DNA from: a bacterium
Lineage (GTDB): Bacteria > BMS3Abin14
Assembly (NCBI GenBank): GCA_029210965.1
Contig: JARGFZ010000003.1
Coordinates: 55,893-119,892 of the forward strand
Length of the DNA stretch: 64,000 nucleotides
Direction: 5' to 3'
A model generated the notes under the pieces. That model was not told where the DNA came from. It worked only from the letters and a program-made list of their open reading frames with translations, and did no database searches. The position numbers were made by a program, and so were the translations under genes. Positions within the stretch are counted from its first letter, which is position 1. Each line of letters begins with the position of its first letter. Below, piece by piece: positions 30,440 through 32,589 of the stretch.

Positions 30440-30817
30440 CTAGCAGCATCCCGACCTTTTTCGTTTTGGGGCCGGAACCTCACACTCACACCCGTTAGCT
30501 GTTGTCCCGCAATCTGACCCGGAGGAAGAGTAATCTTCCAGACCGCAACAGGCATCACCTGATCGACCGAGAGCGCTGTTGATGATTGCCTGGGCACAGC
30601 CGACCCCAGCCTCAACAGTGATCGCCTCTTCCGGACAGTTGCGTGAGCAAGCGCTGCACTCCATGCAGGCATCGCGATCCACTATCCTGGCAAGGCCGTT
30701 GTCCATGGCCAGGACGCCGTGAGGACAAACCACAACGCACATCCCGCAACCGGTGCATTTTTCCTCAAAAAGTTCAAGGGTTGTAACGTCCTTCAGATAT
30801 CTGATCTTGCGGGTCAT
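30440..30817 (-). CDS. hgcB: HgcB-like 2x[4Fe-4S] ferredoxin with Cys-rich C-terminal tail ending in vicinal Cys-Cys
   Basis: CTGCGMCVVVCP and CMECSACSRNCP cluster motifs; C-terminal ...CAQAI...ACCG...DCG...GCECEVPAPKRKRSGCC; ATGA overlap with hgcA; ggagga RBS. Confidence 0.75.
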   Translation of the reverse strand: MTRKIRYLKDVTTLELFEEKCTGCGMCVVVCPHGVLAMDNGLARIVDRDACMECSACSRNCPEEAITVEAGVGCAQAIINSALGRSGDACCGLEDYSSSGSDCGTTANGCECEVPAPKRKRSGCC

Positions 30818-32088
30818 GCTGTTCCTCCGCCAGCAGTGAAAAGAGCAGCCAACCACAGGATCAGCCCCACTGAAACCGCCGTGATCTGGAACGGTACAGC
30901 TTCCTTCATTTCCTTTTTTACTCCGGAAAGTGAGGTGTAAGTGGACGAACCGGTGAAATTCATGGTCAAGTATGAGGACAGGGAGATCGTGATGAGAGTC
31001 CATGCGGACAGTTCAAAGCCTGTAGTGAGGATAAAAAACGGGATCAGCAGAGCCGCGGCGGCGCCTGTAAAGGCGCCCTTCAAGGCGAAAGCCCTGCCCG
31101 GAAGCCAGGGCAGCATGAGCGGAGCCACTACCCCACCGGCGAAGGTACCAAGGATCAAGGCAAAGAGTGACTGGGAACCGTAATGCAGAGCATCCTCAAA
31201 AAAGGTCCCTCTCCCCAGAATTCCAGATATCAAAGCAACCACCAGGGTGATATATAAAACCCATTTCGATGCCGGAACCAATTCCATGGGAACAATGGCG
31301 GCCCGCTCGGCAAGCGGAAACTCTTTTCGCCTCATGGCTGGCGTAGCGCGGCGACCATTATCAAGATAGGCAGAGATATCCCTCAGTTCGACAGGCCCAT
31401 ACATTACTTTGAAACTTGTTCGTTTCCTCACTTCATGGGCAGCCACACCCGGCGCGCCGAGCTGGGGCACGATAAGCCTCTTATGGTTAATGACATCAGA
31501 AAGTTTTGATAACTCTATGCGCTTGATGAGCTCTTCGGTTCCAAAGGTCCCCTTACCTGCCGCACACCAGACATTGACTCCTTTGGTGTCCAGGACGAGC
31601 AGCCAGACGTTCCGTTCTTTCATGCAAGAACGGAGGAGATCGAAAGTCATCCGGTAGTTCGCTGTCACGAGAACATCCGATCCGGCGTCCGGTTCGCCCA
31701 CGCTGTAAAGCCCGGGAGGTACTGTGTAGCCCATCCGGCCGATACCCCAGCGTAATTTCCAGATCCCCAGTCGGTCAGAAGTGCTCATTTCGGTGGACAC
31801 TCTGGGGACTGGACCTACAGAGGTCATCACTTCGCCTATCACGGAAGCCGGAAGATCGTCCCTGTCAATGGTCAAGGCTATAGATTCAATTTTGGTTTCG
31901 CCGTCATAACAGCAGACCTTCGACGACGCACAGCACAGATCACTCACGTTAAAGGATACCTCCAAAAGATCAGAAGGATGAATAGAGAAGCCCTTCGACA
32001 AGCTCAGGGTCCCGAGCCTCATCGAGGGAGAGGGAGGAGAAATTGTTAGTTTCCCTTCATTCTCTATTACTTCTACAAATACTTGCAT
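30814..32088 (-). CDS. hgcA: HgcA-like corrinoid protein (CFeSP-like cap-helix domain + C-terminal 5-TM domain)
   Basis: invariant HgcA cap-helix motif GVNVWCAAGKGTFGT; N-terminal ...GPVPRVSTE...LRWGIGRMGYTVPPGLYSVGEPD...VLVTANYRMTFD; C-terminal ~5 TM helices; first ATG 32088 (GGAGG upstream); ORF open to a GTG at 32109; alternative start 31827. Confidence 0.8.
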   Translation of the reverse strand: MQVFVEVIENEGKLTISPPSPSMRLGTLSLSKGFSIHPSDLLEVSFNVSDLCCASSKVCCYDGETKIESIALTIDRDDLPASVIGEVMTSVGPVPRVSTEMSTSDRLGIWKLRWGIGRMGYTVPPGLYSVGEPDAGSDVLVTANYRMTFDLLRSCMKERNVWLLVLDTKGVNVWCAAGKGTFGTEELIKRIELSKLSDVINHKRLIVPQLGAPGVAAHEVRKRTSFKVMYGPVELRDISAYLDNGRRATPAMRRKEFPLAERAAIVPMELVPASKWVLYITLVVALISGILGRGTFFEDALHYGSQSLFALILGTFAGGVVAPLMLPWLPGRAFALKGAFTGAAAALLIPFFILTTGFELSAWTLITISLSSYLTMNFTGSSTYTSLSGVKKEMKEAVPFQITAVSVGLILWLAALFTAGGGTA

Positions 32089-32589
32089 CGTGTCGGAAAA
32101 CCTCCACACGATGCAAGTCTAACCCAGTGGCGGAAAATGACAAGGGGGGAACGGGGCTACGCCCCCGAGGGTCTGGGGTCTAGTGTCTGGGGTCAGGTCT
32201 GGATACGGGGTACTGGGTACTAGTATTTTAACCCCTAACCAATCGACAGCAGTGATTCCACCACACCCTGGCCGGTTTTTCAGAAGCAGGATGCGCTTCC
32301 TGGACAACCGGGTTTGTTGTCCGGGCCTCAAATTCTTCGAAATAGCGGCGCAGGTCAGGGTAGGCCATGTACATTTCCAATCTAACGGCCTCGTTCCCCG
32401 CTTCGTAGTCATCCAGGATCCATTTTGCTGTCCACATGGGCTTTTCTCCTGCAGGTTCTGTCCTGCCTGTTAAAGTTCTAAACCAAAAACAAAGCTAAGG
32501 AAGGACCCCTGCTGGCCAGCACCAACGGTCGTTCCTTTATATTCATATAGTTCGCCTGCATTTTAATACTACCCGACTCCAGTTGGAAT

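Follow-up and report, generated by a model that had tools for sequence, protein, structure and literature searches.

The reference gene pair for microbial mercury methylation is reportedly hgcA-hgcB of Pseudodesulfovibrio mercurii ND132, described by Parks et al. in 2013. Here, we analysed a candidate hgcA-hgcB pair at positions 30440-32109 of a 64,000-nucleotide (nt) stretch of bacterial DNA from the GTDB lineage BMS3Abin14 (assembly GCA_029210965.1, contig JARGFZ010000003.1, positions 55,893 to 119,892 of the forward strand). This whole stretch is referred to below as the window, and all coordinates are those of the window unless a related locus is named. The pair had been called earlier from the sequence and its open reading frames (ORFs) by a model (hereafter, the original prediction).

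The locus shares with ND132 the two-gene order and an HgcA whose corrinoid domain carries the N(V/I)WCA(A/G)GK motif and is followed by five transmembrane (TM) helices. Its HgcB, like that of ND132, has two CxxCxxCxxxCP motifs, a cysteine in GVGC and a C-terminal CC. In other respects the locus differs from ND132: identity in the fold match to HgcAB model 9a0b was 44%, HgcB is 125 amino acids (aa) long with an extra CC and three more tail cysteines, and the N-terminus of HgcA bears CC-x6-CC. Its linked regulator belongs to the TetR family and is not ArsR-like, and additional conserved ORFs of 69 and 124 aa flank the pair. A second group for comparison is the large subunit of the corrinoid iron-sulfur protein (CFeSP; AcsC/CdhE, structures 2h9a, 2ycl and 4djd), with which HgcA shares a homologous cobalamin-binding Rossmann-like domain (Foldseek E = 1.6e-5). 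In contrast to CFeSP, HgcA has neither an N-terminal [4Fe-4S] domain nor a TIM barrel; a cysteine-bearing cap helix and a membrane domain are found instead.

Regulators adjacent to hgcAB have been described as ArsR-like in Desulfovibrio and Pseudodesulfovibrio and as PrlF/MazE/AbrB-like in Methanomicrobia, with GntR or MarR as neighbours of the pair in single genomes (PMC10349881; bioRxiv 10.1101/2022.10.17.512643). The regulators upstream of hgcA differ between lineages (PMC10349881; PMC7438021). The present locus follows this pattern in having a lineage-conserved transcription-factor gene upstream of hgcA on the same strand. It differs in the family of the regulator (TetR_N plus TetR_C_13), in the small ORF and repeat-rich spacer of 250-450 nt between tetR and hgcA, and in the conserved promoter-like site of hgcA itself. 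TetR-linked hgcAB constitutes one more variant of the lineage-specific regulator theme; in the literature searched, coverage of which was incomplete, no paper linking TetR with hgcA was found.

Identification of the hgcA-hgcB Gene Pair

With a probability of roughly 0.88, the region 30440-32109 contains an intact, orthologous hgcA-hgcB pair encoding a membrane-anchored corrinoid protein and a 2x[4Fe-4S] ferredoxin. The profile hidden Markov model comparison suggested in the original prediction was performed with NCBIfam models, and both proteins, matched along their entire length, exceeded the curated NCBI cut-offs. HgcA scored 429.7 bits against the HgcA equivalog model NF040863 (E = 6.6e-129, profile positions 1-324 of 325; cut-off 275 bits), and HgcB scored 113.6 bits against the HgcB equivalog model NF040864 (E = 2.8e-33; cut-off 99 bits). 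The earlier call of the pair was thereby borne out. HgcA was not placed with CdhD/AcsC-type CFeSPs, the outcome that the original prediction had named as speaking against it, and the CFeSP gamma model remained below its cut-off.

The Pfam search assigned only the CdhD corrinoid domain to HgcA (PF03599, E = 2.3e-11) and Fer4 domains to HgcB. A sequence search of the PDB matched no HgcA; the nearest entries were CFeSP large subunits (2h9a, 4djd), which aligned over the corrinoid domain only (E = 1e-7).

An exact-sequence look-up retrieved identical proteins from NCBI under the names "mercury methylation corrinoid protein HgcA" and "mercury methylation ferredoxin HgcB". Exact copies of the window's Lon-like protease and major facilitator superfamily (MFS) transporter were likewise present in NCBI. 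The contigs bearing the two hgc proteins measure 124,321 and 57,953 nt; the shorter one, JAVVEU010000008.1 (GCA_032251125.1), showed 100% identity to the window over the genes that they share. Since the identical proteins are already named HgcA and HgcB in NCBI, the hgcAB call is not new: the pair is genuine but canonical and ordinary, and it carries this label in databases already. Among the HgcA homologues, the closest (58-89% identity) were proteins from metagenomes or metagenome-assembled genomes (MAGs). Homologues from named taxa appeared only at 49-54% identity and belonged to Desulfomonile, Syntrophobacterales, Smithella, Myxococcota, Bacillota and Zixibacteria.

Gene Start and Domain Structure of HgcA

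The longest hgcA ORF spans 32109..30814 on the minus strand and comprises 431 codons from a GTG, as originally reported, but this figure did not hold as the length of the gene. The hgcA coding sequence most likely occupies 30814..31947 (minus strand; 377 aa plus stop) and begins at GTG 31947, which is preceded by a ribosome-binding site (RBS) in the arrangement GGAGG-N11-GTG. The pattern GGAGGT-N-AAC-(G/A)TG-AGT was conserved in three related loci, with GTG as the start codon in the window and in locus L018 and ATG in locus L001. The sequence 5' of GTG 31947 was unrelated in L018 and contained insertions and deletions in L001. When compared with L001, the 54 extra codons gave a ratio of nonsynonymous to synonymous substitution rates (dN/dS) of 0.85, against 0.17-0.23 for hgcA proper. 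Gene callers assigned 377 aa to the closest homologues, and NCBI protein MDF1525138.1 is an identical 377-aa HgcA. The in-frame stretch that extends the ORF to 431 codons (31948..32109, minus strand) is most likely an untranslated leader; it is situated 3' of the conserved promoter-like site described below.

Three other starts were considered. GTG 32109 (431 codons) and ATG 32088 were rejected, as the conservation of RBS and start codon across loci and the dN/dS values favoured GTG 31947. In a second assembly, the NCBI annotation pipeline PGAP placed the start at TTG 31875, yielding a 353-aa protein; this is less likely because the cysteine-rich N-terminus encoded 5' of TTG 31875 is conserved in homologues.

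The cap-helix motif NVWCAAGKGTFGT was read directly, and by regular-expression match, at nt 31575..31537 (minus strand), in the ORF for which the original prediction had reported it; the other sequence strings quoted there were likewise exact. It corresponds to residues 179-191 of the 431-codon reading, with NVWCAAGK at residues 179-186, so numbered that the cap-helix cysteine is C182, or C128 in the 377-aa form. The residues N-V-W-C-A-A-G were invariant in 61 homologues.

An AlphaFold2 (AF2) model of HgcA built from the alignment of these 61 homologues had a mean predicted local distance difference test (pLDDT) score of 84.7 and a predicted template modelling (pTM) score of 0.78. The model showed a Rossmann-like alpha/beta domain followed by five long helices at residues 212-244, 249-277, 287-306, 311-334 and 340-371. 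Confidence was low only in the first 25 residues, in the cap-helix loop (127-131) and in the last five residues (373-377). Hydropathy analysis revealed five hydrophobic segments in agreement with the model, which places the TM domain at residues 212-371 of the 377-aa form (30835..31314, minus strand). In a Foldseek search against the PDB, the published HgcAB model 9a0b_A ranked first (E = 2.6e-20, 44% identity), ahead of CFeSP structures. The earlier description of a CFeSP-like corrinoid domain with about five TM helices is consistent with the PF03599 match, the sequence matches to 2h9a and 4djd, the Foldseek results and the helix count. At the N-terminus of the 377-aa form lies the motif CC-x6-CC, and cysteines at these positions were common in homologues.

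HgcB and Its Cysteine-Rich Tail

The hgcB gene occupies 30440..30817 on the minus strand and encodes a 125-aa 2x[4Fe-4S] ferredoxin, as supported by the NF040864 match, the cysteine positions and an alignment with 17 homologues. The TGA stop of hgcA overlaps the hgcB ATG as ATGA, a junction noted previously and read directly here, and GGAGG lies 6 nt upstream of the hgcB ATG (30817). The two genes are translationally coupled via this overlap.

Both cluster-binding motifs follow the pattern CxxCxxCxxxCP: CTGCGMCVVVCP provides C21, C24, C27 and C31 with P32, and CMECSACSRNCP provides C51, C54, C57 and C61 with P62. Further cysteines are C74 within GVGC, the pair CC 90-91, C103, C110, C112 and the terminal CC 124-125. 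The ferredoxin assignment and the cysteine-rich tail ending in vicinal cysteines thus match what had been described for this gene. The GVGC cysteine was aligned in 18 of 18 sequences (HgcB and its 17 homologues), and the terminal CC aligned with that of 15 of the 17 homologues, the exceptions being L007 and L012. The dN/dS of hgcB was 0.09-0.17.

HgcB proteins encoded within the gene module described below were 120-125 aa long, compared with 88-108 aa in 14 distant homologues that end near the terminal cysteine pair; HgcB of this clade is about 20-25 residues longer than usual. Residues 91-125 (30440-30547, minus strand) form the extended cysteine-rich tail. As a speculation, this extension might act as a thiol arm delivering Hg(II).

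Proposed Reaction and Weight of the Evidence

Cysteine-thiolate ligation of cobalamin and methyl transfer to Hg(II) have been shown only for HgcAB of P. mercurii, which was purified; its residues C93 of HgcA and C73, C94 and C95 of HgcB are reported to be essential (PMC11588087). The probable counterparts in the present proteins are HgcA C128 (for C93) and HgcB C74 and C124/C125, an equivalence drawn from that report rather than from direct alignment. The scheme below extends the observed sequence, motifs, fold and gene order to chemistry, expression and regulation, and is worded conditionally. By analogy with the purified enzyme, HgcB would reduce the HgcA corrinoid to Co(I), and S-adenosylmethionine would methylate the reduced corrinoid to give methyl-Co(III) cobalamin with cysteine-thiolate ligation, the cobalt being presumably ligated by cap-helix residue C128 of the 377-aa HgcA. 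In a last step, Hg(II) would receive the methyl group, yielding methylmercury.

Several points weigh against reading the pair as a functional methylation system. The lineage is known only from MAGs and metagenome contigs, so that methylation by it is presumed from genes, and neither cobalamin supply nor Hg(II) uptake is shown in the 64-kb window. Even model strains express HgcAB at very low levels (PMC11588087), and the methylation rate is not predictable from gene presence. Structurally, the N-terminal CC-x6-CC of HgcA was not placed by AF2 (pLDDT < 50), and the tail of HgcB is unusually long, with five extra cysteines including the second CC at 90-91. Given the profile scores, the motifs, the TM domain, the fold match and the NCBI naming, "putative methylmercury producer" is a fair label for the carrier.

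A Conserved Five-Gene Module Around hgcAB

The pair is embedded in a module with the gene order tetR-orf69-hgcA-hgcB-orf124. The tetR-family gene (32590..33198, minus strand) encodes 202 aa from its ATG, or 207 aa from GTG 33213, with the Pfam domains TetR_N (PF00440, E = 3.3e-7) and TetR_C_13 (PF16925, E = 6.4e-31). Between tetR and hgcA lies orf69 (32228..32437, minus strand), which encodes a small conserved protein (MWTAKWILDAYE...), and orf124 (29940..30314, minus strand), a conserved hypothetical gene, is located downstream of hgcB; both were recognised by conservation across loci. The original prediction had placed a TetR regulator upstream on the same strand, in agreement with tetR at 33198/33213..32590, and a ferredoxin-nitroreductase fusion downstream. 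The latter gene (33702/33732..34559, plus strand; Pfam Fer4 and Nitroreductase) instead lies beyond tetR in divergent orientation, and it is orf124 that follows hgcB.

The module was found in about 17 metagenome or MAG loci with HgcA identities of 58-100%. On contigs with HgcA homologues of 61-85% identity, the order tetR-small ORF-hgcA-hgcB was kept, and an ORF of 124-145 aa followed hgcB in two of four. The outer flanks of these contigs varied, comprising a ferredoxin-nitroreductase, an ABC-transporter binding protein or an ion channel. In all related loci reaching that far, tetR was directly upstream of orf69-hgcAB. Part of the flanking gene order was shared as well, with the Lon and MFS genes also present in L019.

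The small ORF orf69 was conserved in L001, L018-L021 and 14 further metagenome loci. A metagenome scan seeded with orf69 alone returned 18 loci. Fifteen of them matched from residue 1 and had tetR upstream, except for L025, which starts too near the contig end; hgcA was downstream in all 10 of these residue-1 loci that extended far enough. Partial matches covering residues 4-40 at 47-54% identity were observed in L036 (312-422), L037 (316-426) and L038 (2983-3084), contigs with neither tetR nor hgcA nearby. Because of these matches, the N-terminal motif of orf69 may also exist in other contexts. The orf124 gene followed hgcB in L017-L019, L021, L023, L026, L028, L030, L031 and L033, and its start was present in L001. 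In every locus of the lineage long enough to show it, orf69 and orf124 adjoined hgcAB.

Neither orf69 nor orf124 matched a Pfam or NCBIfam family, even at E values up to 10. No tetR, orf69 or orf124 was detected by tblastn near hgcAB in 15 distant loci (L002-L016); therefore, the module is lineage-specific. The dN/dS values were 0.06-0.15 for tetR, 0.11-0.20 for orf69 and 0.12-0.21 for orf124, and all five module genes were under purifying selection (0.06-0.23). The products of orf69 and orf124 could serve as accessory factors.

Promoter, Leader and Candidate Operators

A consensus scan identified a promoter-like site, TTGTCA-N16-TAGACT, upstream of hgcA (32116..32143, minus strand). A near-identical 28-mer occurred upstream of hgcA in L001, L018 and 13 further loci, which suggests that the pair is transcribed from a promoter of its own. 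Between this site and the start of hgcA there are 168 nt in the window, a similarly long stretch in L001, and about 35 nt in most loci.

A perfect inverted repeat with 13-nt arms, ACTTGCATCGTGT-12 nt-ACACGATGCAAGT (32081..32118; arms 32081-32093 and 32106-32118), forms the beginning of the long leader; it was found by repeat search and is unique in the window. The L001 copy carries two compensatory changes, and the repeat was absent from loci with the short leader of about 35 nt. Folding of the whole hgcA leader gave z = -3.1. The repeat may be an RNA hairpin or a protein-binding palindrome, between which two sequences cannot discriminate. A riboswitch (cobalamin, S-adenosylmethionine or other) in the 168-nt leader was considered and rejected, as there was no Rfam match: none reached the gathering threshold over the whole window, and none appeared at E values up to 10 over 31850-32650.

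Two copies of a conserved quasi-palindrome with the consensus ACGA(A/C)CG(G/T)TCGT were detected around tetR. The first, ACGAACGGTCGT (O1, 33264..33275), is situated 51-66 nt upstream of tetR and was found at the same place in L017, L018, L020-L024, L029, L034 and L039. The second, ACGACCGTTGGT (O2, 32521..32532), follows the tetR stop by 58 nt and precedes orf69 by 84 nt, and was kept amid diverged flanks in L017-L021, L024, L026-L029 and L039. O1 and O2 are candidate TetR operators for tetR and orf69; O2 may also be part of a hairpin following tetR. Because the hgcA promoter has no copy of the quasi-palindrome, we infer TetR control of hgcAB only from linkage.

The spacer between orf69 and the hgcA promoter (32150-32225) contains short repeats of the GACCTGG/GACCCCA type, which were also seen in L001 (300-520), L018 (1340-1560) and L020 (5560-5800). 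These repeats varied strongly in length and sequence between similar loci, from about 70 nt in the window to more than 200 nt in L001. In the intergenic region between tetR and the nitroreductase gene, inspection by eye revealed a TTGACA hexamer followed by an inverted repeat, CCTGTAAA-N10-TTTACAGG (33430-33475), which might serve in the regulation of the nitroreductase gene.

Alternative Explanations

The best surviving alternative accepts a true hgcAB but assigns it a physiological role other than mercury methylation, namely halomethane dehalogenation or another corrinoid-dependent methyl or alkyl transfer induced by a TetR ligand, with mercury methylation as a side reaction. We consider this unlikely, though worth keeping in mind. 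According to a 2026 preprint, heterologously expressed HgcAB dechlorinates CCl4 besides methylating mercury, and halomethane dehalogenation was proposed as a native activity; however, that work is not peer-reviewed and its enzyme comes from a different organism. The native function and regulation of hgcAB are treated as open questions in the literature. In this lineage, tetR stays tightly linked to hgcAB even at loci with different outer flanks. Small organic ligands are what proteins of the TetR family usually respond to. On the other hand, the window contains no halomethane or one-carbon pathway gene, and the candidate TetR sites lie on both sides of tetR and ahead of orf69, with none at the hgcA promoter. 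Such a role would concern the physiology of the pair and not its identity as hgcAB.

Under a different proposal, which we regard as improbable, horizontal transfer left behind intact genes that are now silent or decaying, in an organism that does not methylate mercury. The HgcAB phylogeny departs from the species phylogeny (PMC7438021), and the nearest named HgcA relatives, only 49-54% identical, come from several phyla. Against this, the GC content of the hgcAB region (0.54) agrees with that of its surroundings (about 0.52), and no base-composition signal of horizontal transfer was seen in the window. The dN/dS of hgcA and hgcB, 0.09-0.23 over dS values of up to 1-2.4, indicates long-term purifying selection. 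Moreover, many related loci have kept the module, the promoter and the RBS, along with part of the flanking gene order.

Membership in the HgcAB-like fused or paralogous family, whose members are without demonstrated mercury methylation, appears very improbable: the fusion model NF043039 was a secondary match (195 bits for HgcA and 53.8 bits for HgcB), but its cut-off of 285 was not reached, the score fell far below that of the HgcA model, profile coverage was partial, and HgcA and HgcB are encoded by separate genes, each with its own RBS.

Finally, an ordinary Wood-Ljungdahl CFeSP (AcsC/CdhE) accompanied by a generic ferredoxin has a negligible chance of being correct and is refuted by profile scores and domain architecture: many homologues are named "acetyl-CoA synthase subunit gamma" in JGI and NCBI records, the Pfam match is CdhD and the solved sequence relatives are CFeSPs, but these names are older than the HgcA model, the CFeSP gamma model NF003195 scored 69.1 bits against a cut-off of 306 with only profile positions 322-445 (the last 124) aligned, five TM helices stand in place of the CFeSP N-terminal [4Fe-4S] and TIM-barrel domains, the cap-helix cysteine motif is specific to HgcA, and no acs or cdh genes are located nearby.

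Other Features of the Window

No mer genes were present among the window ORFs scanned, the Rfam scan of the window detected no rRNA or tRNA, and the ORFs included no good taxonomic marker genes. Relatives of the Lon-like protease showed 53-95% identity and included a protein from a Pseudomonadota MAG at 78%, followed by Geobacter/Desulfuromonadia proteins at about 47%. To judge from their contig names, the related loci appear to come from environmental samples. The window also encodes a multihaem cytochrome c (37968-39020, minus strand), a 726-aa ankyrin-repeat protein (56336-58516, minus strand), a LonC-type protease (26040-28493, plus strand) and a second nitroreductase (8771-9532, minus strand). 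The multihaem cytochrome c fits an anaerobic, metal- or sulfur-respiring lifestyle.

Short intergenic tandem repeats were unusually frequent. Tandem Repeats Finder (TRF) reported 42 rows in 64 kb, 19 of them with a period of 7 and with a unit that differs per array; examples are 4512-4547, 7024-7051, 8722-8751, 13987-14023, 21062-21096, 25461-25504, 25725-25771, 30416-30435 and 34914-34940, among others. This abundance looks like a genome-wide trait of the lineage and not one tied to hgcAB. Two further repeats lie within ORFs: a 135-nt tandem repeat of 2.8 copies with 90% identity (60193-60572) inside a 578-aa ORF with a PASTA domain (59421..61157, minus strand), and a perfect 12-nt tandem repeat, GGCATTCCTGCA x 3.4 (50753-50793), within the overlapping ORFs 50674..51273 (plus strand) and 50725..51351 (minus strand).

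Significance of the Locus

The hgcAB pair is the only known genetic marker of microbial methylmercury production; therefore, every lineage found to carry it adds to the potential sources of this neurotoxin. Taken alone, the present pair adds little, being canonical and already named by the NCBI pipeline. It is mildly useful in that its carrier, an uncultured lineage, is not assigned to any phylum in the NCBI taxonomy. The conserved module and its sites represent a modest new observation, and the TetR regulator and two small uncharacterised proteins beside hgcAB offer a testable handle on regulation and role. One rather doubtful proposal is that the five genes form a unit dedicated to hgcAB, in which orf69 and orf124 would be accessory to the methylation complex or to the true reaction and TetR would respond to a ligand. 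If this were true, identification of the TetR ligand would give a lead to the native role of HgcAB, which has long been sought.

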